A DNA stretch of 64,000 nt from Candidatus Iainarchaeum sp. (lineage in GTDB: Archaea; Iainarchaeota; Iainarchaeia; Iainarchaeales; DTGL01), in NCBI GenBank assembly GCA_038895395.1, contig JAWANJ010000001.1, positions 298 through 64,297 of the forward strand. Reading direction: 5' to 3'. Shown here piece by piece: positions 30,049-57,757 of this stretch (the stretch's first letter is position 1; every line of letters starts with the position of its first letter). The notes below the pieces were generated by a model, which was not told the origin of the DNA, did no database searches, and saw only the letters and a program-made list of their open reading frames with translations. Both the position numbers and the translations under genes were made by a program.

Positions 30049-31236
30049 ATGAATAGTTTTCACGTTTTAATGTTAGGTTGGGAATTTCCACCATTCAAGT
30101 CAGGGGGTCTTGGCACTTATTTGTTGGGTTTCACAAAAGCATTAAACTCCCTAGGCGTTAAAATAACTTTCATTATGCCATATACTGGCAAAAGTTTAAA
30201 ATACGATTTCATTGACATCATACAGGCTGACGGTATTGAAATTTTTGGCATAAGCTCAGGCTTGACACCATACTTTGTAAAAGGTGTTGATGGTGAAAAT
30301 AGAACTTCTGTTAGTAGCGTGTATGGTTGGCGGTTTTTCGATGAGGTGAAATATTACACTCAAAGGGCAATAGCAATAGGATCTAAAATAGAATGTGATG
30401 TGATTCACTGCCATGATTGGATGACTTACATGGCAGGCATAGCGCTTAAGAAGATTCTGAAAAAGCCTCTGGTTGTGACAATACATAGCACAGAATATGA
30501 CCGCACTGGAAACCTTTTTCCCAATGCTGAAATAGTCAGTATTGAAAGACGGGGTCTTACCGAGGCAGATATGGTAATAACAGTGAGTGAATATGAAAAA
30601 AGGCAGATTATTGAAAAGTATGGCATTGAACCAAACAAAGTTGCTGTTGTTTATAACGCCATAGACCTTGAACAATATAAGCGCAAAAATATTGAGAAGT
30701 ATTTGAACGACAGAATTGTTCTTTTCGTTGGGAGGCTTACAGTACAAAAGGGCGTAGATTTTTTCATCGAAGCTGCAAAGAAGGTACTTGAAAAGAATAA
30801 AAGTGTGAGGTTTGTTATTGTTGGCTCCGGAGATCAAATGCCACATCTAATACAAAAAAGCATCAGCTTGGGAATAGCAGACAGAGTACATTTCGTTGGT
30901 TTTGAAAATGATGTTTCTAAGTATTATTCGATTGCTGATGTTTTTGTGATGCCAAGTGTTTCTGAACCATTTGGTTTAACTGCATTAGAAGCACTTGCAT
31001 GTGAAGTGCCTGTGATAATAAGTAAACAGAGTGGAGTTAGTGAAGTTATAAGGAACTGTTTAAAGGTTGATTTTTGGGACACTCAAGAGTTGGCTAACAA
31101 GATAATTGCAATGTTGTATTATCAACCACTGTATGAAGAATTGAAAGAAAGATCAAAAATGGAAATTTTGAAGTATAGAAGTTGGAGGGATGTCGCCATA
31201 GAATGCCTGGAAATTTATCGCTTAGTTGCAAGGTGA
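30049..31236 (+). CDS. glycosyltransferase, glycogen synthase-like (GT5/GT4, KxGGL type)
   Basis: N-terminal MLGWEFPPFKSGGLGTYL resembles the GlgA K-T-G-G-L motif. 395 aa GT-B fold. Confidence 0.65.
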   Translation: MNSFHVLMLGWEFPPFKSGGLGTYLLGFTKALNSLGVKITFIMPYTGKSLKYDFIDIIQADGIEIFGISSGLTPYFVKGVDGENRTSVSSVYGWRFFDEVKYYTQRAIAIGSKIECDVIHCHDWMTYMAGIALKKILKKPLVVTIHSTEYDRTGNLFPNAEIVSIERRGLTEADMVITVSEYEKRQIIEKYGIEPNKVAVVYNAIDLEQYKRKNIEKYLNDRIVLFVGRLTVQKGVDFFIEAAKKVLEKNKSVRFVIVGSGDQMPHLIQKSISLGIADRVHFVGFENDVSKYYSIADVFVMPSVSEPFGLTALEALACEVPVIISKQSGVSEVIRNCLKVDFWDTQELANKIIAMLYYQPLYEELKERSKMEILKYRSWRDVAIECLEIYRLVAR

Positions 31237-32440
31237 TATTTTGAAAAAAATATGTTTTTACTTTCAAGTGCACCAACCTATGCGCATAGGAAAATATTCT
31301 TTTTTTGATATTGGAACAGGTAAAAGTTACTTCGATGAAGAAAAGAACAGGGCGTATTTGGAACGCGTAGTAAAAAAATGCTATGGACCAGCAACTGCAC
31401 TAATAAATGAGCTTATTAATGAAACTGATGGTGCTTTCAAGGTTAATTTTAGTATTACAGGCACTTTAATTGAACAGCTAGAAAAATATTTTCCAAAAAT
31501 TCTTGAAAGCTTTATTGCAGTTGTTGAAACGGGTTGTGCGGAATTGTTTAATGAAACTTATTATCATTCACTTTCCTTTTTGATTTCAGAAAGGGAATTT
31601 AAAGAGCAGATAAAGCTTCACAGAAAAAAGATAAAGGCTGTTTTTGGTGTTAAACCCAAGGTATTTAGAAACACTGAGGCAGTATATAACAATGACATAG
31701 CTAAAATTGTTTCGAAACTTGGGTTTAAGGCTATTGTGACTGAGGGTAGTGAGAAGATATTAGGTTGGAGAAGCCCAAATTACTTGTATAAAGCAAAGGG
31801 AGAAGATATCTTACTTCTTTTAAGAAACTATAGGCTTAGTGATGACATTGCGTTTAGATTCTCTGAGAGAAGCTGGACGGAATATCCTTTGACAGCAGAT
31901 AAGTATGCATATTGGATAGCGGCCACACAAGGAGAATGTGTAAACATATTTATGGACTATGAAACCTTTGGTGAGCATCAGTGGCCTGAAACAGGAGTTT
32001 TTGATTTCTTAAGACATTTGCCAATGGAGATTTTAAAGTATCGTGACTGTGAATTTGCTTGTGCATCTGAAGTTATAAAGAAACTTGAACCAAAAGATGA
32101 GCTGGATGTTCCGTATTTTTTGTCATGGGCTGATATAGATAGAGACTTGTCAGCTTGGCTGGAAAACAGAATACAAAGGCATGCTTTCGAGGAGATCAGG
32201 GCTCTAGAAAAAGCAGTTAGGAAAAGCAAAAATCTGGATATTTTGCATAGCTGGCGCTTGCTGCAAACATCAGACCACTTTTATTATATGTGCACAAAGT
32301 GGTTTGCGGATGGCGATGTACACAAATATTTCAATCCTTACGAGACGCCTTATGATGCATATATAAATTATATTAATGTGCTAAACGATCTAAAGATGCG
32401 CTTAGGTATTAACGCCCAGCAGCAAGCTCATATGCGTTAA
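31226..32440 (+). CDS. glycoside hydrolase family 57 protein
   Basis: N-terminal FYFQVHQPMRI matches the GH57 HxHQP signature. 404 aa. Confidence 0.65.
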   Translation: MQGDILKKICFYFQVHQPMRIGKYSFFDIGTGKSYFDEEKNRAYLERVVKKCYGPATALINELINETDGAFKVNFSITGTLIEQLEKYFPKILESFIAVVETGCAELFNETYYHSLSFLISEREFKEQIKLHRKKIKAVFGVKPKVFRNTEAVYNNDIAKIVSKLGFKAIVTEGSEKILGWRSPNYLYKAKGEDILLLLRNYRLSDDIAFRFSERSWTEYPLTADKYAYWIAATQGECVNIFMDYETFGEHQWPETGVFDFLRHLPMEILKYRDCEFACASEVIKKLEPKDELDVPYFLSWADIDRDLSAWLENRIQRHAFEEIRALEKAVRKSKNLDILHSWRLLQTSDHFYYMCTKWFADGDVHKYFNPYETPYDAYINYINVLNDLKMRLGINAQQQAHMR

Positions 32441-34220
32441 GATAGTTTGTTATTAAATTTGACCAAGACAAGTTGTAACTCAACTGCTTTGCAACTATTT
32501 TTAAGTCACCACGTTCTCTTTTAGGAAGCATGTATATGTACTTCAGATATTCCACAAGCTCAGCCAAAGTTTTCTCGTAAGGTGTGTTTGCTCTTGACAG
32601 CACTTTTATTGCATTTTTTGCAAGATCAGTATTTAGATGGTTCTTTATGTATTGACCAAAACCGCTTAAATCTGTTGTAACTGCCGGTAGACCAAGTGCA
32701 ATGGTTTCTAAAGGTGTGTATCCCCAGGATTCATAATAGCTTGGAAATACTCCTAAATGGCAGCCCATTACTGCTTGATAATATTCAAGACCTAAAAGGC
32801 CATCAGCAGTACTAAGGTAGGTAGGATAATACAGCACTTTAACTTTATCTGTTTCCCTATTGAAAAGATTGTTTTTCTTTATTCTTGTGAGGATTTCATC
32901 ACTTTCATCGACTTCTAGCACACTTATTGGTGGCACTTCATTTTTTTCATGTTTTAGTTCAAACAACATTTTTTTAACTTTATATAAAAATTCGTCATCA
33001 AGCAGATTCTTACCTGTTGGGGGCTCACCTTTTGAAATGCTGTAATAAAGCCTGTTTTTTATTTTTCGTATTTCATCCTCAATTTCGTCCTCTAATCGCT
33101 CATACAATGCCATATGTTTCAGAAGCTCGATGTTTTTGCCTCTGTTAGGCGCTGGGACAAATATAAAAGCGAATATTGTTGTTGTGTTTTTAGTATCTTT
33201 TAACTCATTGTTTAATCGCCCCAAGGCGTCTATAAACAGGTCTATGCCTTTGTTTCTTACCTCATAGCGGCCTGAAAGGAAGTAAAACAGGCTATCTTCA
33301 ACGTTTATGTAATAATATGGTGCAAAGTAGTCAAGCACGAAACGTCTAATGATGTTTCTGTAGATAACATGGAGATTTGCAAGCTCTTCCATAACATAAA
33401 ATTTTTCTACGTTTAGGCCATTTGGGGTTAAAATATCAGGTCTTCTGCCAAGAATGTACTGAGATTCGTTAGCACAAGTCTCGGATACTGTAGTAAACAC
33501 AGTAGCTTTGTGAGCGCATGCTTTTTCTGTAAGATGTTTTGCTTGAACTCCATATTTATATGCACGTTCATTTGGCACTGTTTCATTTGCCTGTATCTTT
33601 GAGATTATTTCTTCGTGCAATGGCTCTCCTGATCCAGCAATGCACCTTCCAAGCACGGTTGCATGTGTTGTAAAAATAGTTTTTATTTCTGGTTTATAGT
33701 GCACTATGTGAAGAAGTGCGCCTCCCGATAGCCACTCATGACAATGAACTATGCATTTTTTTATGTCATGCTCTTTTGCAAAAACAACCGTAATCAATTT
33801 TTCTAATAATAGGCCAACTGCCTTACCCCAAACAATAGGTTCGTTGTAATCATCGCCCGTGCCCAGAGAGTCTATTTGATAAAGATCCCAAAATTCTCGT
33901 TTTATATCATTTGTCTTTGCCTTTAGTTCATTTGGATCAACTAATATGCACTTTGGTCTGCCAGGTACAAGCCAATGGCCAGAATAGCAGTTAATTCCAT
34001 ATGTTTTTTTCAGGTAATCGAATACTTCAGCAAATTCGGGCGATGGTGTTTCTTCTTCAAATTCAACAGCGGCGCTTCTTTTGAAATAAGGACCAATTGT
34101 AAAAAAGTTTTTCAGGGAATTTTTTGCTTCAGCAGCCTTTGTGGATAGGACAGTATATATTCCGCCTACTTTGTTAGAAACTTCCCATCCAACCTCAAAA
34201 ACAGTGAAATCTTTTTGCAT
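32409..34220 (-). CDS. glycogen synthase, eukaryote-like GT3 family
   Basis: N-terminus FEVGWEVSNKVGGIYTVLSTKA is the GT3 glycogen synthase signature (EVSWEVANKVGGIYTV). 603 aa. Confidence 0.8.
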   Translation of the reverse strand: MQKDFTVFEVGWEVSNKVGGIYTVLSTKAAEAKNSLKNFFTIGPYFKRSAAVEFEEETPSPEFAEVFDYLKKTYGINCYSGHWLVPGRPKCILVDPNELKAKTNDIKREFWDLYQIDSLGTGDDYNEPIVWGKAVGLLLEKLITVVFAKEHDIKKCIVHCHEWLSGGALLHIVHYKPEIKTIFTTHATVLGRCIAGSGEPLHEEIISKIQANETVPNERAYKYGVQAKHLTEKACAHKATVFTTVSETCANESQYILGRRPDILTPNGLNVEKFYVMEELANLHVIYRNIIRRFVLDYFAPYYYINVEDSLFYFLSGRYEVRNKGIDLFIDALGRLNNELKDTKNTTTIFAFIFVPAPNRGKNIELLKHMALYERLEDEIEDEIRKIKNRLYYSISKGEPPTGKNLLDDEFLYKVKKMLFELKHEKNEVPPISVLEVDESDEILTRIKKNNLFNRETDKVKVLYYPTYLSTADGLLGLEYYQAVMGCHLGVFPSYYESWGYTPLETIALGLPAVTTDLSGFGQYIKNHLNTDLAKNAIKVLSRANTPYEKTLAELVEYLKYIYMLPKRERGDLKIVAKQLSYNLSWSNLITNYLNAYELAAGR

Positions 34221-34287
34221 CTAATCGCCTTTCAATAGTAATTAAAATAATAAAGGTTAAAATAACTTTCATTTTAACAATTAGAAT

Positions 34288-36168
34288 GTGGTTTCACCGA
34301 TAAACAAAAATTCGGAATTGGGAAAATATTCTTATTTTTTGAGCAATAAGGATTGTTTTTTTCACAGATATTACGATACTGGTTTCAAGACAAAATGGAC
34401 TGGCTTTTGGTCCAATGGCAAAAAGTATATTGAATTTTTTGACTTTAAGGTTTTTGGAAAATATCTTTCAGAGTCAAATTGCATAAAAGCAACATATGAT
34501 TTTACGAAAGCAACTCATGTTCATGCTATTGATGATGGTGTTTTTATTCAATCTGTTTGGACCCCGCTTTCTGGAGCTAAACTAGTTGTAGAGCTCCAAA
34601 GTGCAAACAACAAAAATTTTGAAGCTGAGTTTGAGTTTGCCATTAACATACGAAAGCGAGAAGAAAATTGGCATGATCGCGATTATGTAGTAAAACAGGA
34701 TGAAAATGAAAATTGTATAAATGTTTCTTCTAGTTTGGGTCAAATAAATATTTGTGTTTCTGGAAGCGAAAGCCAGTTTGTGCCTTTGCATCAGTATTTT
34801 GACCATTATCCATCTGGGGAAAAACAGCGATATTTTTTGCCGGGCATACTGAAACTAAAGGGCACAACTGTACGAATATTGTTTTCTTTGGAGAATGAGT
34901 CAGGTTTTGGTGACAACGAGCTTTTAAGCAAAAGAAGCTTTTATCGACAGCTCACCAACTGCATAGAGTGTGATGACCCTTTGATCTCTGGGTTATACAA
35001 AAAAGCCATTTTAAACATGGAGCTGCTTTTTTGTGGTAACTGTTATTACGCGGGTTTGCCCTGGTTTTTGCAGTTTTGGGCAAGAGATATGTTTTGGAGC
35101 TTACCAGCTTTCTTGTATGCGGGTTTTTTAAATCGAGCTAAATCAGCATTAGAGGTTTTTTCAGATAAGGTTATCAATGGAAGAGTTCCAAATTATATCT
35201 ACGGAGATGAAGTAAATTACTCTTCCATTGACTCCAGCATAATGTTTATATCTGCTTTAAGGGATTATATTGCGTTTTCAGGAGACACGGATTTTTTAGA
35301 GAATAAAATCGACTTAGTTTGTGATATAATGCAGAGGCTTCTTGCAGTTACTGACAGCAGAGGGTTTATATCACATGATAGCAAAGAAAACGAAACTTGG
35401 ATGGACAGTCTAAATAGGTATGAAACTGCCATAGAAATACAAGCCCTTTTTGTAAAGGCCCTTTCAGATTTTTCTGAGCTTGTATTTTTGGCAAAAAAAC
35501 CAAGTGGTGCTGCTATGGCCTTAGCATTTGAGGCAGAGGGGCTTGCAAGAAGACAACAGCACTTATTTGAAAAAGTTTTTTACAACGATGGCAAGTATGC
35601 CGACAGAATATGCGGTGAGCAAAAAGATTTCTCTAAAAGGCCAAATGCGCTTGTGCCTATTATGTTGGGGTTAAGCAAGTTTGGAATCGAAGAGTTTGAA
35701 AAGAGCGATATTTTATGCGAAAAAGGTGTAATGAGTCTTTCAAGTGAAAACAATGGATTTGATAGTGCTTCGTATCACAACGGCCAGGCATGGTCTCTTT
35801 GCACTGGTTGGCTTGCATGTGCGGAGTTTGCTATGAATCGGGTTGAAAAAGGCTATGAAATACTTAAGATCATTGATGATTACACTTACGGTGACACGCC
35901 TGGCTGCATAGGAGAATCATGGAATAGCAAAACGTTTGAGCGTATGGGGTGTAATATCCAACTTTGGGGCGCAGCACTTGCTATAAGAGCTATAGATGAG
36001 TTTATGCTTGGGATAAAACCATATGCTCCACGTCAAGAGATAGAAGTTTGCCCAAGGTTACCATCAAGTGTTGGATATGTTAAAAGGACTATAAATTTGG
36101 GTGGAAAAGAAACAAGCATCATTGTTAAGAAACAAGGCACATCAGTGAAAGTAGGCCTTTCACGTTAG
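34288..36168 (+). CDS. glycogen debranching enzyme / amylo-alpha-1,6-glucosidase (six-hairpin GDE C-terminal domain)
   Basis: 626 aa. GDE_C-like (alpha/alpha)6 region (…LPWFLQFWARDMFWSLPAF…). GTG start. Confidence 0.7.
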   Translation: MVSPINKNSELGKYSYFLSNKDCFFHRYYDTGFKTKWTGFWSNGKKYIEFFDFKVFGKYLSESNCIKATYDFTKATHVHAIDDGVFIQSVWTPLSGAKLVVELQSANNKNFEAEFEFAINIRKREENWHDRDYVVKQDENENCINVSSSLGQINICVSGSESQFVPLHQYFDHYPSGEKQRYFLPGILKLKGTTVRILFSLENESGFGDNELLSKRSFYRQLTNCIECDDPLISGLYKKAILNMELLFCGNCYYAGLPWFLQFWARDMFWSLPAFLYAGFLNRAKSALEVFSDKVINGRVPNYIYGDEVNYSSIDSSIMFISALRDYIAFSGDTDFLENKIDLVCDIMQRLLAVTDSRGFISHDSKENETWMDSLNRYETAIEIQALFVKALSDFSELVFLAKKPSGAAMALAFEAEGLARRQQHLFEKVFYNDGKYADRICGEQKDFSKRPNALVPIMLGLSKFGIEEFEKSDILCEKGVMSLSSENNGFDSASYHNGQAWSLCTGWLACAEFAMNRVEKGYEILKIIDDYTYGDTPGCIGESWNSKTFERMGCNIQLWGAALAIRAIDEFMLGIKPYAPRQEIEVCPRLPSSVGYVKRTINLGGKETSIIVKKQGTSVKVGLSR

Positions 36169-36211: not shown

Positions 36212-37108
36212 ATGGGTATGAACCAAACAAATGAGAACAAGGAAAATATTGGAAACATAGTTGAAAAATATGTTGAGAACTTCAAAAGAGAACTGATTGT
36301 TGGTGGTTTTTCCAATAGGACCATTAAAATGTATCTGCTATATATCCGAGAATTTCTTGAGTTTATAAAAAAAGACCCATTGCTTGCAACTCGAGAGGAT
36401 GTTATAGCATACATGGCACACAAAAAAGAAAATAAGGCCACTGATTCTACGATGTGTTTGGTTTATTCTGCATTGAGACATTTCTTTAAAGAATATTTAA
36501 AAAGCGATGTGATGGAAGATATAAAGAGGCCAAAAAAGGGGACAAAGTTACCAGTTGTGATGACTAAAGAAGAGGTTATACGGATGATAAATGCTGCTGA
36601 AAGAAAAAAAGACAGACTGATAATGATGCTTCTTTACTCTAGCGGTATGCGTGTTAGCGAGGTAACAAAGCTGAAAATAAATGATATTAATTTTGCTGAT
36701 AGAACAGCAATAGTGCGCGGCGGTAAAGGGAATAAGGATAGAATAGTAATCTTGTCTGAGTCTTGGTTAAAAGATTTGAGTGATTATTTGAAAAAAAGAA
36801 AGGCAAAGACAGAATATGTTTTTTCAGATTATTTGGGCAGACCAATTTCAGTGGATACTATTCAGAGAATTGTAAGAAAGGCCAGAATTAAAGCAGGTAT
36901 CGAAAAAAATGTGACACCACACAGTTTTAGACATACATTTGCTACACACCTTCTCGAGCGTGGTGAAAACATTAGAAAAATACAGGAGCTTTTGGGTCAT
37001 AGCAACTTATCTACAACGCAGATATATACAAAAGTTTCTGTAGAGGAATTAAAGAAGGTCAAAAGCCCGTTGGACAATTTAGAAAAATTTGATAAATGCA
37101 ATGGATAA
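36212..37108 (+). CDS. xerA: tyrosine recombinase, XerA/XerC/XerD family
   Basis: C-terminal catalytic region HSFRHTFATHLLERGENIRKIQELLGHSNLSTTQIYTKV (HxxR...H...Y) and the N-terminal SAM-like core-binding domain. Confidence 0.85.
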   Translation: MGMNQTNENKENIGNIVEKYVENFKRELIVGGFSNRTIKMYLLYIREFLEFIKKDPLLATREDVIAYMAHKKENKATDSTMCLVYSALRHFFKEYLKSDVMEDIKRPKKGTKLPVVMTKEEVIRMINAAERKKDRLIMMLLYSSGMRVSEVTKLKINDINFADRTAIVRGGKGNKDRIVILSESWLKDLSDYLKKRKAKTEYVFSDYLGRPISVDTIQRIVRKARIKAGIEKNVTPHSFRHTFATHLLERGENIRKIQELLGHSNLSTTQIYTKVSVEELKKVKSPLDNLEKFDKCNG

Positions 37109-37690: not shown

Positions 37691-38275
37691 GTGCAGAGGG
37701 GGTCTAAAACGTTAAAAGCACATTTCTTACAATATAAGTTTATTGTGCCAAAAACACTAAGCAGGTCTTCTTACACCTATCAAAAACTTTTTAGAGCGCT
37801 TTACGGTTATACTCAAGTAGTAAATAAATCAAATGGGAAAAGGTATAGGTATCATAGAAAAGGAATACTTTCTGATGTTCCTTTTATAAGGCCTTCTAAA
37901 AATTCCCTTATAATACCAACTGATGCTTTGCAAAAATTGATTAACTTTTTTAATACTGGTGAAAATCCCGCTCATCGATGGACTGCTAAAGGTGATTGGA
38001 AGGCGGTTTATTACTTAAGTGACAAACAAATTAGTGAACAAAGTGTCGCTAGAGCATTTGAGCAAGTTTTGGATAGGCAATGGGTAAACTATGGCGGTGA
38101 AAAAATGCTTTTGGAAGATTTCTTATCAAAATTTGTGCCAAAAAAAGAAGAATTAAAAAATAAAAAAATAGTGCAATTCTGCAATTACTTAACTTCCCAC
38201 GAATGGTTTGCTAAAAGTTATGTATATTCTGACAGACTTAAAAAATTCAAAACTCTCTGCGAAAATCTATCTTAA
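37691..38275 (+). CDS. hypothetical protein (194 aa)
   Basis: ORF only. No motif recognised. Confidence 0.3.
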   Translation: MQRGSKTLKAHFLQYKFIVPKTLSRSSYTYQKLFRALYGYTQVVNKSNGKRYRYHRKGILSDVPFIRPSKNSLIIPTDALQKLINFFNTGENPAHRWTAKGDWKAVYYLSDKQISEQSVARAFEQVLDRQWVNYGGEKMLLEDFLSKFVPKKEELKNKKIVQFCNYLTSHEWFAKSYVYSDRLKKFKTLCENLS

Positions 38276-38278
38276 TGC

Positions 38279-38728
38279 TTATTTGCTTACAAGCTTTTTT
38301 ATTAACTTTTTTTCTTTTTCTTTAGAGTACTCATCAGCATTATTTTCAGATACTGCTATTTCGAATAAGCATTCCTTTTTTCTCCACTTCATCCTACCAC
38401 CTACGCTATGTGTCTCTACTAAGTTAATGTCTACGAGTGTTTTCAAATATGGGTAAAGACTTCTTTCGTTTTTATAGTCAACACCAAAAAGCTCTTTTAT
38501 TCTTCGTCTTATTTCTGGCATGTCAACCCATTCATCAAAGCCAAGTACATTAACTAAATGGTATGCTTGTGTGTTCTCGTTAAAAGACAAAAAATCCCAT
38601 AGGGACCTTATTTCTTTTTTTACTTCTTCTTCAGGTATGCTTTTGTAAATTCGCTCTTCTTCTGTAGCCCAATTTTTTATCCTACTGCCTATTTTTATAA
38701 GAAATCTTATCAATCTTTTCATTACCAT
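38279..38728 (-). CDS. hypothetical protein (149 aa), possible winged-helix
   Basis: ORF only. Weak wHTH-like C-terminal segment. Confidence 0.3.
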   Translation of the reverse strand: MVMKRLIRFLIKIGSRIKNWATEEERIYKSIPEEEVKKEIRSLWDFLSFNENTQAYHLVNVLGFDEWVDMPEIRRRIKELFGVDYKNERSLYPYLKTLVDINLVETHSVGGRMKWRKKECLFEIAVSENNADEYSKEKEKKLIKKLVSK

Positions 38729-39075: not shown

Positions 39076-39150
39076 TAGCGGGGGATGGATTTGAACCATC
39101 GACCTTCGGGTTATGAGCCCGACGGGCACTCCAAGCTGCCCCACCCCGCT
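39076..39150 (-). tRNA. initiator tRNA-Met (CAT)
   Basis: Reverse complement folds as a cloverleaf: acceptor AGCGGGG/CCCCGCT (A1:U72), anticodon arm TCGGG-CTCATAA-CCCGA with three G:C pairs, T arm GATGG-TTCAAAT-CCATC, discriminator A. Confidence 0.85.
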
Positions 39151-40513: not shown

Positions 40514-40586
40514 GGGCCCGTAGCTCAGCTGGCAGAGCACTGGACTTTTAATCCAGGTGTCGCGGGTTCAAATCCCGTCGGGCCCA
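40514..40586 (+). tRNA. tRNA-Lys (TTT)
   Basis: GGGCCCG...CGGGCCC acceptor stem, anticodon loop CTTTTAA, T arm GCGGGTTCAAATCCCGT. Confidence 0.9.
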
Positions 40587-40587
40587 T

Positions 40588-40678
40588 GGGGCTGTGGTGT
40601 AGTCTGGTCTAGCATACCAGCTTTGGGAAATTAAATTCAAAAAAGCTGGAGACCCGGGTTCAAATCCCAGCAGCCCCA
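40588..40678 (+). tRNA. tRNA-Pro (TGG) with a ~16-nt intron after position 37
   Basis: Acceptor GGGGCTG/CAGCCCC. Anticodon stem CCAGC/GCTGG flanks TTTGGG + aaattaaattcaaaaa + A. T arm CCGGG-TTCAAAT-CCCAG has one C·A mismatch. Confidence 0.7.
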
Positions 40679-40696
40679 ATAAATTGAGGTGAGTTT

Positions 40697-42187
40697 TTGA
40701 AGGATTTAATCACAGATGAAGAAATTAAAAAACTGGGGTTTGACGAATCTAAATTAAAAAAGCTAAGAGAAATTTTGGCAAAAGGCATAAACCCATATGC
40801 ATATAGCTTTAAAGAAACCACTAAAATAAAGGACATTCTAAAAAAATATGATAAAATAACTCATGAAAAAACAAAAGAAAAGCTGCGCGTAGCAGGCCGT
40901 TTGTATACTATCAGATATCACGGTAAAGCTATCTTTGCAGACATAAGAGATTCAGACGAAAAGATCCAATTGTACCTTAGAGAAGACGAAATTGGAAAAG
41001 ACAAATACTCTTTTTTCAGAAACTTTATAGATGTTGGAGACATAATTGGAGTTGAAGGTCATGTCTTTAGAACAAAGCTTGGTGAGATAACCATATGGGC
41101 CACAAGCTATGAGCTACTTGCAAAGTCTCTTATTGTCATGCCTGAAAAGTTTCATGGTTTGCAAGACATAGAACGACGATATAGAGAAAGATACCTGGAT
41201 CTTATCTGCAATCAAGAAACACGGGAAGTGTTTAAAATAAGAACAAAAATACTCTACCTGATGAGAAAATACTTGATTTCAAAAGGTTTTTTGGAAGTGG
41301 AAACTCCAATCCTCCAACCTTTGTATGGTGGTGCAAATGCAAAACCATTTGAAACGTACCATAATTTTCTCAAACAGAAGCTATACTTAAGGATTGCCCC
41401 GGAGCTTTATTTAAAGCGCCTTGTAGTTGGTGGTTTTGATAAAGTTTTTGAGATAGCAAAAAATTTTAGGAACGAAAGCATAGATACCCTGCATAATCCT
41501 GAATTTACAATGATCGAAATATATGAGGCCTATAAAGACTATGCTGACATGATAGAACTCACTGAAGATATGCTAAGCTATATTGTAAAAGAAACCATAG
41601 GTTCATACAAAGTAAAATTTTTTGAAAATGAGATAGATTTTAAACCAAAATGGAAAGTTGCCACGATGTGTGACTTGATTGAAAGTAACATTGGCATAGA
41701 CGTGACTGGCAAAGAGCTAGCTGAACTCAAAAAATTGGCAGAAAAAAAAGGCATTAGAGACGCTAAAAATTTAAATAACAGGGGTGAAATAATTGTTGCG
41801 CTTTTTGAAAACTTTGTAGAAGATACTTTGATTCAACCAACATTTGTAACTGAGTTTCCAGTAGAGGTATCACCGCTGGCTAAAGAGAGCAGAACTAAAA
41901 AAGGCTTTAGCGAAAGGTTTGAACTTTTTATAAATGGTTGGGAAATAGCAAACGGTTTTTCAGAACTAAACGATCCTATAAACCAAAAGGTAAGGTTTGA
42001 AGAGCAAATTGCTTCTAAAAAAGAAACTCCAAAAGTGCTGGATTATGACTACATCAAAGCATTGGGCTATGGTTTACCGCCAACTGGCGGCGTAGGCATA
42101 GGAATAGATCGCTTTACAATGTTGCTCACAAATAAAAATTCAATAAAAGAAGTAATTTTGTTCCCACACATGAGGCCATCGGAGTGA
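40697..42187 (+). CDS. lysS: lysyl-tRNA synthetase, class II
   Basis: N-terminal OB anticodon-binding domain and class-II catalytic core (FLEVETPILQPLYGGANAKPF, motif-3 region GLPPTGGVGIGIDR). Confidence 0.85.
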   Translation: MKDLITDEEIKKLGFDESKLKKLREILAKGINPYAYSFKETTKIKDILKKYDKITHEKTKEKLRVAGRLYTIRYHGKAIFADIRDSDEKIQLYLREDEIGKDKYSFFRNFIDVGDIIGVEGHVFRTKLGEITIWATSYELLAKSLIVMPEKFHGLQDIERRYRERYLDLICNQETREVFKIRTKILYLMRKYLISKGFLEVETPILQPLYGGANAKPFETYHNFLKQKLYLRIAPELYLKRLVVGGFDKVFEIAKNFRNESIDTLHNPEFTMIEIYEAYKDYADMIELTEDMLSYIVKETIGSYKVKFFENEIDFKPKWKVATMCDLIESNIGIDVTGKELAELKKLAEKKGIRDAKNLNNRGEIIVALFENFVEDTLIQPTFVTEFPVEVSPLAKESRTKKGFSERFELFINGWEIANGFSELNDPINQKVRFEEQIASKKETPKVLDYDYIKALGYGLPPTGGVGIGIDRFTMLLTNKNSIKEVILFPHMRPSE

Positions 42188-42198: not shown

Positions 42199-42221
42199 TC
42201 TATAAACAATTTCTATCTTAT

Positions 42222-42293
42222 GGGGCGGTAGCTCAGAGGGAGAGCACACGGCTGAAGACCGTGGTGTCGCGAGTTCGAGTCTCGCCCGCCCCA
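42222..42293 (+). tRNA. tRNA-Phe (GAA)
   Basis: GGGGCGG...CCGCCCC acceptor, anticodon arm CACGG-CTGAAGA-CCGTG, T arm GCGAG-TTCGAGT-CTCGC. Followed by a T6 run at 42300-42305. Confidence 0.9.
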
Positions 42294-42325
42294 ATAATAT
42301 TTTTTCAAACAGTAATAGGCTGGTT

Positions 42326-43060
42326 TTACACATTAGGCTCTTCAATTTTTTTGACTTCGATGCCCCTCTTTGTTATTTCCATTGGGTGTATGTACTCCGA
42401 ATGTTTAGATCCACGCATTTTAACAACTTGTATAGCCCTAGTTATTCCACCACCAACACCTATGTAATGAAGTAGTATAACCCCATCACATAGAAACTCT
42501 TCAATTCCATACTTGCTAAACTTTTTGTCATCAACTTCAACCTCAGATATTAAAACAGAAGTAGTCCCAGCTTTTCCCAACAAATAGCTTAACTTCAAAA
42601 GGCCACGCCTTATTTCATCTTCAGATCGCATGCTAAGACCTAAAGCCGCTACGGAGTCAATCACAATTCTTTTTGCGCCAAATCTTTTTATAGAAGCAAT
42701 GATTTCAAGTAACAGTTTGTCCAAATCTAAAGTGCTGCTTGGTAATGCAAATTCTTCTTCACTAGGAAATCCCAGCCTTGCAACAGTGCCATCTATGATT
42801 CTAATCATATTTTTGTTTTCAAGCTCTCTCAGATCCCAACCAAAACTTAAACAATCTTCACGAAGAAGGGACGGTCTCTCATCAAGCGTTACGTATATAC
42901 CTGGCTCATCATATAGCACAGCACCATTATAGATGAACTGCAAGCCAAAAGTAGTTTTTCCAGAGCCACAAGAACCACTTACTAATATTGTTCTACCTGT
43001 GGGAAAACCCCCCTCTATTAACTCGTCAAGACCATATATGCCAGTTTTGGTTCTTTTCAT
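42326..43060 (-). CDS. KaiC-like/RecA-superfamily ATPase (COG0467-type)
   Basis: GIYGLDELIEGGFPTGRTILVSGSCGSGKTTFGLQF (Walker A). Confidence 0.7.
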   Translation of the reverse strand: MKRTKTGIYGLDELIEGGFPTGRTILVSGSCGSGKTTFGLQFIYNGAVLYDEPGIYVTLDERPSLLREDCLSFGWDLRELENKNMIRIIDGTVARLGFPSEEEFALPSSTLDLDKLLLEIIASIKRFGAKRIVIDSVAALGLSMRSEDEIRRGLLKLSYLLGKAGTTSVLISEVEVDDKKFSKYGIEEFLCDGVILLHYIGVGGGITRAIQVVKMRGSKHSEYIHPMEITKRGIEVKKIEEPNV

Positions 43061-43123
43061 TAATATCACCAAAAAAATTATATGCATACAACAATATATA
43101 TTTTTACCCCTATAGACACAAAA

Positions 43124-44950
43124 TTAGACTCTTTTTACATAAATTATATTCTGTATTTTTTGTAGGTTTTCAATTATCTGCTCTAAATGTGTTCTATCTT
43201 TTATATACAAATCAAATAACCCTTTTACTATGTTCCCAGATTCAACCATAAGCTCACTTCTAACGATTTTCGCATCCATTTTTTTTAATTCTTCTAAAAG
43301 ATCCCTTAAAAGCACACCGCTTTCAAATGCCTTGATTTCAATTCTAATCACATATCGGTTCATTTCAAGTAAATGGGTTGCAATTAAAAATTTCTTTTTT
43401 TTAGGTAAACAGAAAAGCAATCTACAGTCAGTTCTGTGCACTGTTATTTTATCTCTCGAAGTTTTATACGCAACTACATCATCTCCAGGGAGGGGATTGC
43501 AGCACTTTGCAAAAATTATGTCACTTCTGTTGGCTTTATTTGGATTAAAAACCCTAAAACCTTTTGTACTTTCAAGTTCCTTCCTTATTGCAGACCTTGC
43601 TTTTGATGTTCTTGCAAAGTTTAACCAACTAGCTTTTACTGTTTTTTTTGTATCAACAAAAACACGGATTTTATCACCACTTTCTAAAACATAATTGGCT
43701 GGCCTCCTTACTCCATTTACATTTGCAAACTTAAACCTATTCCCTAAATCAGTATGAACAGCATATGCAAAATCTAAAACTGTTGCCTTTTTAGGTAAAG
43801 CAATAATATCGTGCTTTGGTGTTAGAACAAATATTGTGTTGTCAGTTAGTTTAAATTTAACATAGTTTAAGAGTCCCTTCATGTCTTTTTGCTGAAGTTC
43901 AAATAATTTTCTAGCAGCCAAAAGCGCCCCATCAAAATTAGTATATTGTTCACCTCTCTTATAACGCCAGTGAGCAGCAGCACCATACTCTGCTTCTCTG
44001 TGCATATGCACTGTCCTAATCTGTACTTCTACAGGTATGTTGGAAACTTTTGTCATAACATGTATTGACTGATAATTATTTTCCTTTGGCTTTTTAATGT
44101 AGTCATAGATTTTCCCATGTATCCCAAAATTTTGTTTTATAATGTTTAACACCTTATAGCAGTCTTCTACAGAATCGCACACCACCCTAACCCCGATGAT
44201 GTCTTTAATCTTATCGATCTCTAGATTTTCTTCAATGCTTTTTCTATAGATGCTGTAAACCCCTTTTACACGCCCCTGTACTAAGGCCTTTATTCCAAAC
44301 ATTGAGACTAACTTTTCAATATCACATTTTGCCTTCGCAAGTACTTTTTCCCCACAAACAATCTTTTCATAAATTAGCGCTTTTGTTTTTTTGTACTCTT
44401 TTGGCATAAGTATAGCCATACCCAAATCTTGTAATTCCTTACACATTTCAACTAGACCTAGTTTTTGACATATATTTGAGTAAACCTCAAGTGACAGTTT
44501 TGCTGCACGTAGTTCTCTTACGCTTGGTTTCTTTGAAGTTTTGTATATCTGACGCATTTCATCTAGGTGTGAAGCAAGCTCAACAATTATACTTCTTAAA
44601 TCCTTTGATATCGCAAGAAGTATGTTTGCCAAACCAACACTGTTTAAGTGCTCAATATTTCTTTCTTTGGCTTCGTAAATCTTGTTAACCTCCATCACAA
44701 TTTCCCTTACGTCTTCATCTACGGGTGCTAAGTTTATACAGTCCTTAAGTTCATGCAACAGTGCGGCAGAAATAGATTTTTGATCAAGACTCAAATCAAA
44801 AACAATTTTTGCAGTTCTTAGCTGATGCAAAAACCGTGTCCTTTTAGAGTTTTTCTTTGAAAACTCTAATACTTCAATAATTTTCGCAGCGTCTTTATCG
44901 AACTCTCTAAATAGCTCATCTTCTGTGAGATATAAACCACTGCCTTTCAC
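43124..44950 (-). CDS. long RelA/SpoT homologue (HD-like + (p)ppGpp synthetase + TGS + ACT domains)
   Basis: Synthetase motifs GRVKGVYSIYRKS...IGVRVVC...YQSIHVMT...RTVHMHREAEYGAAAHWRYK. TGS region VFVLTPKHDIIALPKKATVLDFAYAVHTDLG. N-terminal HD-like region with ALLHELKD (HD altered to HE). 608 aa. Confidence 0.85.
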   Translation of the reverse strand: MKGSGLYLTEDELFREFDKDAAKIIEVLEFSKKNSKRTRFLHQLRTAKIVFDLSLDQKSISAALLHELKDCINLAPVDEDVREIVMEVNKIYEAKERNIEHLNSVGLANILLAISKDLRSIIVELASHLDEMRQIYKTSKKPSVRELRAAKLSLEVYSNICQKLGLVEMCKELQDLGMAILMPKEYKKTKALIYEKIVCGEKVLAKAKCDIEKLVSMFGIKALVQGRVKGVYSIYRKSIEENLEIDKIKDIIGVRVVCDSVEDCYKVLNIIKQNFGIHGKIYDYIKKPKENNYQSIHVMTKVSNIPVEVQIRTVHMHREAEYGAAAHWRYKRGEQYTNFDGALLAARKLFELQQKDMKGLLNYVKFKLTDNTIFVLTPKHDIIALPKKATVLDFAYAVHTDLGNRFKFANVNGVRRPANYVLESGDKIRVFVDTKKTVKASWLNFARTSKARSAIRKELESTKGFRVFNPNKANRSDIIFAKCCNPLPGDDVVAYKTSRDKITVHRTDCRLLFCLPKKKKFLIATHLLEMNRYVIRIEIKAFESGVLLRDLLEELKKMDAKIVRSELMVESGNIVKGLFDLYIKDRTHLEQIIENLQKIQNIIYVKRV

Positions 44951-45071
44951 AAATGAATTTAATTAAATAAACAATAAAAAGCGATATTTGTATAAAACTC
45001 TTTTACAGATATTTTCTTCAAATGTGAGCTTACAGTATGCTTAAAAAATCATTTAAACAATATTTTATTGT

Positions 45072-45318
45072 GGGCTAGGCTGGGGAGCTAGCGGTTCCCT
45101 GTATCGGAAATCCGCTATATGCCGGGCCGAAGTTCTGGGGAAGGCTTTAGGCTAAAGGCAAAGCCATAGCATCACGTTGATGCTTTGACCCCATTGACTT
45201 CACTTTGTGGTGAACCCGCTAGGCCTGGAAGGGAGCAACGGTAGCCACACTGTGAGGTGCTATGGGAAATCAGAGCTGAGTGTTGCTATGGGGTTAACTT
45301 GTCTTTAGCCTATTGTCG
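45072..45318 (+). ncRNA. signal recognition particle RNA (7S/SRP RNA) candidate
   Basis: GC-rich structured 250-nt island in an otherwise AT-rich 385-bp intergenic gap. Contains the helix-8 signature AGGCCUGGAAGGGAGCAACGGUAGCC (compare AGGUCCGGAAGGAAGCAGCC). Also has a GNRA-capped hairpin and 5'/3' complementarity (UAGGCU...AGCCUA). Confidence 0.6.
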
Positions 45319-45336
45319 ACTTCAGAACGTGCCCAC

Positions 45337-46458
45337 TCATACTCTTTTTTTCAAACGTTCTTGTTTCCCTTTTTTTAAAGCTTCTTTAAAAAGCAAGTCA
45401 AGGCAATCCTCAAGTGCTGTTAAAAAATTCCAAGACTCAGAAAAAGCATTCAAAGAAATATTTCCGCAGGAGACTTTTGCTTTTACTGAATGTTTAACTC
45501 TCATACCTTGCTTTTTACAAGATTTAAAATGTATTGCTAAGCTAAACTCTCCTGGCAGTATCCTACTAAGCTTTTCATACATCATATTTATTTTTCTTAA
45601 AGCTCTTTCTTCATCTGGTTTTGTAAGCGGTGGCATATTTGAAAGCTGTATTTTAACTCCCTCTTTTCCCAAAGAAATTATTGCCCTTAACAAATCTTTT
45701 GTTGTAACAATTCCCTTTACCTTTTTATCATCCACCAGTAGTATGCTATCAGACTTTACTAATTCGCTTTTTGCATCAGCAACTTTTTGTGTAGGTCTAA
45801 AGCTTTTAGCTTCTTCGACAATGTCTCTAAGCCTAACTTTCAATATTTTTTTTGCTTCAGGTTCATGTCCAGTTAATGAAAAAAGACCACGTTTTGGATC
45901 CTCATGAATGAAGTACTTTTCTATTAGCCCTTCTAAAGTTATCACGCCAATGCAATTGTTTTCTCTATCAACTATTGGCACCTGCTTTATTTCATTTTTA
46001 CGCATAACTGACAAAACCTTCGCTAAATTATCATCTTCATTTAGTGTTATCGCCTCCGAGCTAAGTGCTTTCAGTTCTTTTCTAGCAAGATCTTCATCTT
46101 CTAGTGCCTTTGCCAAAATATCTTCAACTCGAACAAACCCGACTAGTGTACCACCCCTAAAAACAGGCAATATTCTCGCATTTGAGTGGTACATCAAACT
46201 TGCAATTTTTAATAGATCATCTTTTTCCGAGATACTCGGAACCTTGGTGTCAGCGATAGTTTTTACCTTCGCTTCAGAGTAAATCCTCTTTCTTTTAATG
46301 AGTTCTCTCTGAGTTAATATGCCAAAATAAGATCCATCTAAAAAAATAACCAAGTTTTTTTCTTTATTCTTCAGCATTAAACTAAATGCTTCAGAGATCT
46401 TAGATTCCCCACCTACTTGAATAATTTTAGAAGTAACCAAATCGGATGCTAAAACCAA
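45337..46458 (-). CDS. CBS-domain protein (tandem CBS pairs)
   Basis: 373 aa with four CBS-like repeats. Not checked by motif. Confidence 0.65.
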   Translation of the reverse strand: MVLASDLVTSKIIQVGGESKISEAFSLMLKNKEKNLVIFLDGSYFGILTQRELIKRKRIYSEAKVKTIADTKVPSISEKDDLLKIASLMYHSNARILPVFRGGTLVGFVRVEDILAKALEDEDLARKELKALSSEAITLNEDDNLAKVLSVMRKNEIKQVPIVDRENNCIGVITLEGLIEKYFIHEDPKRGLFSLTGHEPEAKKILKVRLRDIVEEAKSFRPTQKVADAKSELVKSDSILLVDDKKVKGIVTTKDLLRAIISLGKEGVKIQLSNMPPLTKPDEERALRKINMMYEKLSRILPGEFSLAIHFKSCKKQGMRVKHSVKAKVSCGNISLNAFSESWNFLTALEDCLDLLFKEALKKGKQERLKKRV

Positions 46459-57214: not shown

Positions 57215-57757
57215 TTGGATGACTTTTTCAATGATGAAAATGAAGAACTTGAGTATTTTGACTCTGCAGGATTTTTCAAAGGTTTTTCGAATAGAAAAAC
57301 TATCCATGAAAATGGCTTTTGGCATAAAGGGGTTCATGTTTGGGTTTTTAACAGCAAAGGACAACTTTTCCTAAAAAAAAGATCTAAATACAAGAAGATA
57401 CACCCTTTACACTGGGAAGACGTTGGAGAACACCTAAAACCAAATGAAGACTTTAAAGACGCGGCGTTAAGGGGCTTAAAAGAGGAACTTAACGTTGATG
57501 AGAGCAAAATAAAAGAATTGTATAAAGTTAAAAGTTTGAAGATGGAGTTTGGTAAAGATCGCGAGTTCATAGAGCTTTGGTTTTGCGTATATGATGGTCC
57601 TTTACAAGAATCTAAAGAAAGTTTTGGTGGGAGATTTTTTGAAATTGAAGAAATTAAAAACATGCTAAAAAACAGATCGATGATTACACCATGGTTTAAG
57701 GAACTTTTTTACTGGTGTTTGAAGGAAGTAGCATGGCCAAAGAAAAAATTTCAATGA
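57215..57757 (+). CDS. Nudix hydrolase with features of type-1 isopentenyl-diphosphate isomerase
   Basis: Nudix-like box GEHLKPNEDFKDAALRGLKEELNV. N-terminal H-x2-G-x3-H (IHENGFWHKG), KRSKYKKIHPLHW, EFIE and C-terminal ITPWFKELFYW parallel IDI-1 landmarks. The IDI-1 catalytic Cys is not present. Confidence 0.5.
   Translation: MDDFFNDENEELEYFDSAGFFKGFSNRKTIHENGFWHKGVHVWVFNSKGQLFLKKRSKYKKIHPLHWEDVGEHLKPNEDFKDAALRGLKEELNVDESKIKELYKVKSLKMEFGKDREFIELWFCVYDGPLQESKESFGGRFFEIEEIKNMLKNRSMITPWFKELFYWCLKEVAWPKKKFQ

Follow-up and report, generated by a model that had tools for sequence, protein, structure and literature searches.

A Long RelA/SpoT Homolog with a Decayed Hydrolase Site and a KaiC-like Gene Neighbor in a DPANN Archaeon

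Within a 64-kb stretch of the genome of Candidatus Iainarchaeum sp. (contig JAWANJ010000001.1 of assembly GCA_038895395.1; the whole stretch of 64,000 nucleotides that was analyzed is henceforth called the window), we found a gene for a long RelA/SpoT homolog (RSH), followed on the same strand by a gene for a single-domain KaiC-like ATPase of the RecA superfamily. The active-site residues of the RSH and the setting of its gene make it very probable that a bona fide archaeon here codes for a long RSH combining a dead hydrolase with a live synthetase. We propose that this protein works as a synthetase-only, RelA-like alarmone synthetase with the KaiC-like ATPase for a partner, an explanation that, taken as a whole, we regard as fairly likely. 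The RSH belongs to a crown clade of archaeal homologs, all of which share its hydrolase-dead, synthetase-intact condition.

Long RSHs were not found in archaea in the survey of Atkinson et al. in 2011 (PMC3153485). According to Li et al. in 2021, RelA/SpoT occurs in 69% of Diapherotrites genomes as well as in further DPANN phyla and was “acquired from Bacteria”; the report amounts to one annotation-based sentence, and the word KaiC is absent from the paper (PMC8407392). The homologs in question are almost certainly the same genes as those of the present clade; hydrolase inactivation, the missing helical domain and the structure of the clade find no mention there. The presence of RelA/SpoT in DPANN is, hence, already known, and an earlier note on this DNA, which was drawn up from the letters alone and described such proteins as rare in archaea, fails on this point for the lineage at hand. 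Apparently new are the crown clade with its dead hydrolase, the lack of the helical domain and the strictness with which synthetase, TGS and zinc-finger residues are conserved, as are the linkage to KaiC and the adjacency to an aminoacyl-tRNA synthetase. Beyond the report of Li et al., our literature search found no paper linking ppGpp with DPANN.

Domain Architecture and Active Sites of the RSH

Profile searches recovered all four Pfam domains expected from the earlier note, with E-values far beyond chance for HD_4, RelA_SpoT and TGS (2e-15 to 3e-35) and for ACT_4 (1e-11); its description of the protein as full-length did not stand, as the alpha-helical (AH) domain is mostly deleted (Table 1). 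PF28438 is precomputed for the zinc-finger domain in the cluster of this protein. An AlphaFold2 model of the RSH has a mean predicted local distance difference test score (pLDDT) of 83, with residues 10-217 all-helical at high pLDDT, and its top PDB matches by Foldseek are RelA, SpoT and Rel. Against the NCBIfam model TIGR00691 (spoT_relA) the protein scores 390.4 bits and does not reach the cut-off of 499.2, which fits a divergent, shortened subfamily.

We compared the hydrolase site residue by residue with M. tuberculosis Rel, E. coli RelA and 120 homologs; the roles of its residues reportedly come from the RelSeq structure of Hogg et al. (2004). The first two histidine ligands, H42 and H66, are retained. 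The HD dyad has become HE (E67) within ALLHELKD at residues 62-69, just as the earlier note had seen; the site is even more degenerate than was stated there, with the catalytic ED pair turned into DC (D70-C71) and ADRLHNMR into ASHLDEMR, such that the final metal-ligand aspartate is S127 and the asparagine is E131. By comparison, HHDEDDRHN is the reading at the nine hydrolase positions in 78 of 96 bacterial-type representatives. In the same vein, a hidden Markov model (HMM) of the intact HD domain gives 87 bits for the window RSH, 90-165 bits for its pseudo-HD relatives and 266-272 bits for intact archaeal relatives. Judging from the residues and the model, this is an HD domain that has kept its fold and lost its catalytic and metal-binding residues.

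It could be countered that the HE variant still binds metal and that the enzyme is bifunctional after all, with synthetase and hydrolase both at work: both histidine ligands are in place, the change from aspartate to glutamate is conservative, and the automatic names of some homologs read “bifunctional (p)ppGpp synthetase/...pyrophosphohydrolase”. We hold this to be very improbable. Four more active-site positions are gone (ED to DC, the metal-ligand Asp to Ser and N to E); these positions vary freely across the crown clade, with some members lacking both histidines, which argues for an absence of selection on the site; and the score on the intact-HD model drops from about 270 to 87-165 bits.

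The synthetase domain presents the opposite picture, in line with the earlier claim that its motifs are intact. The set of catalytic and substrate-binding residues is complete on alignment (R227, K229, D250, R255, Y293, H297, E308, Q310 and R312), all nine being invariant in the clade alignment (A1). The corresponding signature, RKDRYHEQR, is intact in 54 of 56 tabulated short-linker proteins, with one or two of the nine residues changed in each of the other two. The position of the RxKD/ExDD motif, the significance of which was reportedly set out by Sajish et al. (2007 and 2009), reads KIYD in the window RSH and EYDD, RFDD, KFYD or QFND in other clade members. Taken together, the degenerate HD domain and the intact synthetase motifs suggest that the RelA-like, synthetase-biased enzyme of the earlier note is best read as a synthetase-only one.

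Two further elements are invariant in the clade alignment. The first is H399 of the TGS domain, which aligns with H432 of E. coli RelA (H420 of B. subtilis Rel). In the bacterial proteins, this histidine stacks on the tRNA's 3'-CCA terminus, and its mutation abolishes activation by deacylated tRNA (PMC7797070). The second is the CCHC set of the zinc finger (C483, C484, H505 and C509). What separates the two domains has been drastically reduced: the spacing from W442 to C483 is 41 residues in the window RSH and 41-49 in the clade as against 115-145 (median 134) in bacterial-type relatives, and residues 457-480 cover residues 545-663 of M. tuberculosis Rel in the alignment. The AH-domain model PF19296 has no match in the window RSH or its relatives and is present in the bacterial homologs of 700-790 residues; the loss in the window RSH amounts to about 90 residues.

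Archaeal Provenance and Evolution of the RSH Clade

As the RSH family is overwhelmingly bacterial, one has to weigh whether this gene stems from bacterial contamination or from chimeric assembly in an archaeal bin. The evidence effectively refutes such an origin, to which we assign a negligible probability, and upholds the earlier note's multidomain long RSH in an archaeon. On a single contig, the gene lies between a full-length archaeal signal recognition particle (SRP) RNA, which starts 117 nt upstream of it and is divergently transcribed, and archaeal genes; its neighbors in the window include those for RadA, RPA, a 225-aa archaeal-type TIM, a four-CBS-domain protein, TFE, Trm56, PcrB, SRP54 and RtcA. 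The GC content is even across the window, and the GC content at third codon positions (GC3) of the RSH gene, 0.287, falls between the host's limits of 0.25 and 0.355. An NCBI entry from a metagenome-assembled genome (MAG) labeled “Candidatus Diapherotrites archaeon” has exactly this protein sequence (100% identity), and the RPA-RadA-TIM-CBS-RSH-KaiC block recurs, intact or rearranged, in at least ten independent assemblies from NCBI, JGI, ENA and Logan.

A profile search covered 1.84 billion representatives at 50% identity, of which the best 150 were analyzed. The exact sequence of the window RSH gave no contig match, and the gene contexts of the clade were taken from the contigs of its homologs. 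The nearest of these are 606-631 aa long and 31-51% identical to the window RSH; all have a degenerate HD domain and an intact synthetase, and every one that could be located is on an archaeal contig. Two further archaeal groups, of 638-650 aa, carry fully intact HD sites. Their archaeal provenance is clear from the genes for eIF2-gamma and S6e on the contig of one (L007) and from those for RNA polymerase subunits Rpb1, Rpb2 and Rpb5, S17e and Alba on that of the other (L088). In neighbor-joining trees, the pseudo-HD clade has a bootstrap of 98%, its union with the first intact group 88% and all three archaeal groups together 99.5%. The RSH is, hence, placed in a single archaeal clade inside a bacterial family, which fits a bacterial origin.

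The best 150 representatives include 53 short-linker proteins, about three quarters of which have HD signatures that are divergent and unlike one another. The crown clade including the window RSH comprises 35 representatives at 50% identity; the basal archaeal groups mix intact HD domains with independently decayed ones. For instance, in a basal group with linkers of 57-59 aa (P0312, P0383, P0326, P0315, P0293 and P0282 compared with P0036, P0264, P0280 and P0378), some hydrolase signatures are intact and those of close relatives decayed, which indicates that the hydrolase was lost more than once among archaeal RSHs. The TGS histidine is retained in the short-linker proteins bar one outlier (P0353), and the CCHC set in every full-length member. 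Likewise, pairwise identity averages 54% in the synthetase, 57% in the TGS and 53% in the zinc finger, as against 35% in the pseudo-HD and 32% in the RRM domain. Such a pattern is to be expected if the synthetase is active and the hydrolase has been freed from selection.

Certain bacterial RSHs are also shortened, namely P0022, P0021 and P0024, which branch apart from the archaeal clade. The first has a length of 652 aa, a linker of 71 aa and an HD domain that is intact, and comes from a contig (L089) that also codes for DNA polymerase III delta', S21 and LptFG. As these proteins fall outside the archaeal clade, truncation of the helical domain appears to have arisen independently in bacteria. 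A contig scan with the clade alignment gave at least 79 bacterial loci and one Iainarchaeum locus among the matches listed; a profile of the pseudo-HD domain by itself gave three matches, and the size of the clade was estimated from the search of the representative library instead.

We suggest that the RSH gene passed from bacteria to an early DPANN lineage and was vertically inherited thereafter. The transfer is old, the GC3 being fully host-like and the gene lying within conserved core-gene synteny. The earlier note's module of horizontal origin holds for the RSH and not for the KaiC-like protein, which is, per domain, closest to the single-domain archaeal PH0186.

The KaiC-like ATPase and Its Linkage to the RSH

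The longest open reading frame (ORF) of the KaiC-like gene (42326-43087 on the minus strand) begins 36 nt past the RSH stop. The start is nevertheless the second methionine, an ATG at 43060, as in the NCBI protein P0121 (244 aa, 100% identical) and in all orthologs (244-247 aa), which sets the spacer between the two genes at 63 nt; of the earlier description of a KaiC ATPase 36 nt downstream on the same strand, the family and the strand stand and the distance is superseded. The protein has the P-loop ATPase core, with the Walker A motif GSCGSGKT, VTLDERP (LDER), the Walker B motif RIVIDS and KMRGSKHSE, all conserved in each of the eight aligned partners. Its PDB matches are the CI domain of cyanobacterial KaiC and P. 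horikoshii PH0186 (5e-58), the two to which it comes closest when domains are compared singly. It does not match the circadian two-domain KaiC: it has one PF06745 domain, which resembles CI (154 bits) more than CII (60 bits), no S-T pair at the position of the CII phosphosite, and 151-196 bits on the KaiC equivalogs, the cut-offs of which are 408-546.

The pairing noted in the window is also conserved far outside this genome. Of 11 independent crown-clade loci, 10 (the window, L001, L002, L003, L005, L008, L090, L091, L092 and L093, with L094 and L095 repeating the sequence of L093 in two other assemblies) have the RSH gene directly followed by a KaiC-like gene of the same orientation, the two being 48-110 nt apart. 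The KaiC-like orthologs of these pairs are 52-84% identical and keep all ATPase motifs; the corresponding RSHs are 33-51% identical. The flanks vary around the pair, as TIM and CBS genes may be co-directional, divergent or absent, and the upstream genes are those for DsbA and HIT in L005 and for a Na/Ca exchanger and PolX in L090. Coming from the other side, a search of metagenome contigs with the KaiC-like protein gave one match (L092), which follows a pseudo-HD RSH; a 62%-identical KaiC from a MAG labeled Micrarchaeota (L093) does so likewise. No KaiC-like gene is found beside the two intact-HD archaeal RSHs examined (L007 and L088).

The spacer of the window contains a box resembling a TATA element with a B recognition element (BRE), a T7 run and a Shine-Dalgarno (SD) sequence (Table 1). 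By eye, A-rich TATA-like boxes are seen 25-48 nt before the ATG in eight orthologous spacers (48-106 nt) and at the L092 junction, and a GGTG-type SD in most orthologous spacers; these elements were judged visually, without a statistical test, on an AT-rich background. The KaiC-like gene may, hence, have its own promoter, which qualifies the co-transcription considered in the earlier note. A scan for sigma-70 promoters and hairpin terminators gave matches at or below the expectation from shuffled sequence, the models being bacterial and inapplicable to archaea.

Given this constellation, we see the KaiC-like ATPase as a candidate functional partner of the RSH, with a likelihood that we place just short of even. 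The alternative is that the RSH is as described and its companion simply an inherited neighbor, a conserved DPANN housekeeping ATPase of unrelated function. The promoter-like box and SD of the window and their counterparts in the orthologous spacers point that way, as do the size of the KaiC family (120 clusters or more at an identity of at least 56%), the position in a conserved block of core genes (RPA, RadA, TIM and LysRS) and the derivation of the loci from related DPANN lineages. However, the pair has been kept where both flanks have changed (L005, L090 and L093), with TIM and CBS genes flipping or vanishing around it; both KaiC homologs that were approached independently of the RSH (L092 and L093) adjoin one; and the gene is missing next to the intact-HD archaeal RSHs. 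We would give the inherited neighbor a real chance, at somewhat under one in two.

Proposed Function

We propose the following scheme, in which the functional claims for both the RSH and the KaiC-like protein derive from sequence. The RSH would make (p)ppGpp by passing the pyrophosphate of ATP on to GDP or GTP; we take (p)ppGpp to be quite probably the product, in view of the retention of the guanine-stacking YxSxH motif and of a complete catalytic set of the RelSeq type. Autoinhibition by the C-terminal region would be relieved when uncharged tRNA, whether on the ribosome or off it, engages the TGS domain, and the alarmone would have to be degraded in trans by another enzyme. The KaiC-like ATPase could modulate the RSH, for example as a gate set by ATP or the energy state, or as an off-switch making up for the control lost with the hydrolase and the helical domain. 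More speculatively, the loss of the helical domain together with that of the “off” state of the hydrolase would leave regulation with a gap, one that might be filled by a dedicated partner.

Several considerations weigh against this scheme, beyond its derivation from sequence. In B. subtilis Rel, the AH domain contributes to specific tRNA binding, and the bacterial TGS domain by itself binds tRNA unstably (PMC7797070); loss of the AH domain may compromise tRNA binding. Archaeal ribosomes are unlike the bacterial ribosomes that activate RelA. A 2023 review has (p)ppGpp as undescribed in archaea and seemingly unimportant there, model archaea showing stringent-like control with (p)ppGpp undetectable (PMC10249747). 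A search with custom HD and synthetase HMMs through the window and 12 related loci turned up neither another RSH nor a small alarmone hydrolase, and without a (p)ppGpp hydrolase in these regions an unopposed synthetase might be toxic. The link to KaiC is one of gene order, most of the linked loci come from related DPANN lineages, such that the synteny may be inherited, and the intact-HD loci checked for an absence of KaiC number two. In the eleventh crown-clade locus (L006), a 158-aa ORF on the opposite strand follows the RSH gene, whereupon the contig ends. Owing to the promoter-like box in the spacer, the RSH and the KaiC-like gene need not be co-expressed. Finally, the trees were built by neighbor-joining on the top matches only.

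For alarmone degradation, the window offers a single candidate, the product of a NUDIX hydrolase gene (57215-57757 on the plus strand; Pfam 1e-13).

Another reading would have the enzyme make a different product, such as (p)ppApp, or else pyrophosphorylate tRNA in the manner of toxic small alarmone synthetases, serving as a toxin or defense effector with the KaiC-like protein as its regulator or antitoxin. The two-gene layout is like that of toxSAS toxin-antitoxin pairs (bioRxiv 10.1101/575399), the synthetase domain has a weak PADLOC match to the candidate family PDC-S33, and a hydrolase is absent in cis. On the other hand, the RSH groups with long RSHs rather than small alarmone synthetases in searches and trees, the guanine-stacking Tyr and His of YQSIH are kept along with the whole RelSeq-type catalytic set, the synteny is of a housekeeping kind rather than that of a defense island, and the PADLOC match of the KaiC-like protein is marginal (3e-4). 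The protein departs from toxSAS and anti-phage modules in being a 608-aa multidomain RSH, and PADLOC gave no meaningful assignment to a defense system. We deem this reading improbable.

Returning to the synthetase-only enzyme, the near-perfect retention of the synthetase, the TGS histidine and the zinc finger next to a decayed hydrolase, in a large and diverse clade, is hard to explain unless the enzyme produces an alarmone in vivo. The use of (p)ppGpp by archaea is an old open question, and this clade offers concrete proteins with which to test it; it also constitutes a natural experiment on the roles of the alpha-helical domain and of the hydrolase in RSH control. KaiC-like ATPases are said to be archaeal signaling hubs (Makarova et al., 2017), and the partner proposed here would be a specific, testable case of that idea. 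In its most far-reaching form, the proposal would be that DPANN of the Iainarchaeia/Micrarchaeia type have a real (p)ppGpp stringent response, in which the hydrolase-dead RSH, devoid of its helical domain, is gated by a dedicated hexameric KaiC-type ATPase in place of the bacterial logic of hydrolase, helical domain and ribosome, and the module is tied by position to lysyl-tRNA synthetase (LysRS). We consider this rather unlikely; if true, it would define a previously unknown class of alarmone control and, for the Archaea, the first alarmone system with a physiological role. If, conversely, the KaiC link is only synteny, the finding shrinks to a well-characterized new subfamily of a known enzyme.

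Relation to Known Systems

Among characterized proteins, E. coli-type RelA shares with the window RSH a dead but structurally kept HD domain, an active-type synthetase, the CCA-sensing histidine of the TGS domain, the CCHC set and the ACT/RRM domain, and ribosome-bound RelA (5iqr) is the best Foldseek match. The two are nevertheless not orthologous by the model NF008124, on which the window RSH scores 249 bits versus a cut-off of 728. Its HD domain died independently, in an archaeal clade with intact-HD basal members; the roughly 90 AH-domain residues are missing; the ExDD position reads KIYD, with EYDD in some clade members; and both its host and the host's ribosome are archaeal, with a KaiC-like gene coming next. 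The bifunctional Rel proteins (RelSeq and those of M. tuberculosis, B. subtilis and T. thermophilus) have the same order of domains and the same catalytic set in the synthetase, the M. tuberculosis Rel 8fr8 being the closest PDB match by sequence (7e-76). From these, the window RSH differs in its destroyed hydrolase site, its truncated helical domain and its score below the TIGR00691 cut-off.

The KaiC-like protein has in common with the single-domain archaeal KaiC-likes (PH0186, PH0284 and ArlH) a length of about 245 aa, one KaiC/RecA domain, the Walker A and B motifs, the catalytic glutamate and KMRG-x-KH. In contrast, it stays below all cut-offs of the archaeal KaiC equivalogs in NCBIfam, the best being thermo_KaiC_1 (178 bits vs 307), and with 34 bits versus a cut-off of 215 it is not ArlH. 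It represents a distinct DPANN subfamily that lies beside an RSH gene in every case examined. In concept, the pair resembles B. subtilis Rel and the CBS protein DarB (PDB 8acu), where a small partner protein sets the balance of synthetase and hydrolase in a long RSH; here, however, the proposed partner is a RecA-superfamily ATPase and comes to notice through gene order.

Gene Neighborhood in the Window

The coordinates of the features discussed are collected in Table 1.

Table 1. Features of the RSH-KaiC region, in coordinates of the window.
Feature	Position	Strand	Remarks
Long RSH gene	43124..44950	-	608 aa, intact ORF, GTG start
RSH domain order	43124..44950	-	pseudo-hydrolase, synthetase, TGS, short linker, zinc-finger domain, ACT/RRM
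Pseudo-hydrolase HD_4, aa 32-166	44453..44857	-	Pfam 2e-15
Synthetase RelA_SpoT, aa 226-334	43949..44275	-	Pfam 3e-35
TGS, aa 373-431	43658..43834	-	Pfam 7e-18
Residual TGS-to-zinc-finger linker, aa 432-479	43514..43657	-	replaces the ~130-aa AH domain of bacterial long RSHs
Zinc-finger/ribosome-intersubunit (RIS) domain, aa 480-522, AKCCNPLPGD...VHRTDC	43385..43513	-	alignment to RelA/Rel
ACT/RRM, aa 531-607	43130..43360	-	Pfam ACT_4 1e-11; Foldseek matches to Rel ACT domains
RSH-KaiC spacer, 63 nt	43061..43123	-	between RSH stop and KaiC start
BRE/TATA-like box, AAAAATATATATT	43093-43105	-	spacer sequence
T7 run	43071-43077	-	spacer sequence
SD, GGTGAT	43065-43070	-	spacer sequence
Single-domain KaiC-like RecA-superfamily ATPase, 244 aa	42326..43060	-	Pfam KaiC PF06745 1e-73
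Class II LysRS	40697..42187	+	Pfam tRNA-synt_2 2e-94; convergent with KaiC
Archaeal SRP RNA	45068..45338	+	Rfam RF01857, 146.3 bits, E 1.4e-33, full length

In seven loci, LysRS lies just downstream of the RSH-KaiC pair, with its class and orientation varying: it is of class II in the window, L005, L008 and L092 and of the unrelated class I in L090, L091 and L093, and also in the KaiC-less locus L088. This looks like an in-situ swap of LysRS classes at a conserved position beside a tRNA-sensing enzyme. The next downstream aminoacyl-tRNA synthetase in L001 and L003 is the seryl one (SerRS). Directly upstream of LysRS in the window (40514-40679, plus strand), tRNA-Lys(UUU) abuts, with no spacer, a tRNA of 91-93 nt that ARAGORN leaves unassigned and that probably contains an intron. 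A tRNA-Phe (42221-42294, plus strand) lies between LysRS and the 3' end of the KaiC-like gene.

On its other side, the RSH gene has for its upstream neighbor the gene of the 373-aa four-CBS-domain protein (45337-46458, minus strand), which is also near the RSH in L001, L002 and L003. By its likeness to DarB (8acu is among the PDB matches), this protein is a possible second regulator of the RSH.

Farther away, a tyrosine recombinase (36212-37108, plus strand) combines a Phage_integrase domain with a SAM-like N-terminal domain; as it is syntenic in L001 and L003, it is probably a chromosomal XerA and not a prophage integrase. Near it are two ORFs without a Pfam match and a tRNA-Met (37691-38728 and 39076-39150), and here the GC content is the lowest in the window (0.30). 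The region 30049-36168 houses a glycogen/alpha-glucan cluster encoding GT4/GT5 starch-synthase-like, GH57, eukaryote-type glycogen synthase (PF05693, 2e-140) and amylo-alpha-1,6-glucosidase-like proteins, which suggests carbon storage in this small-genome archaeon.

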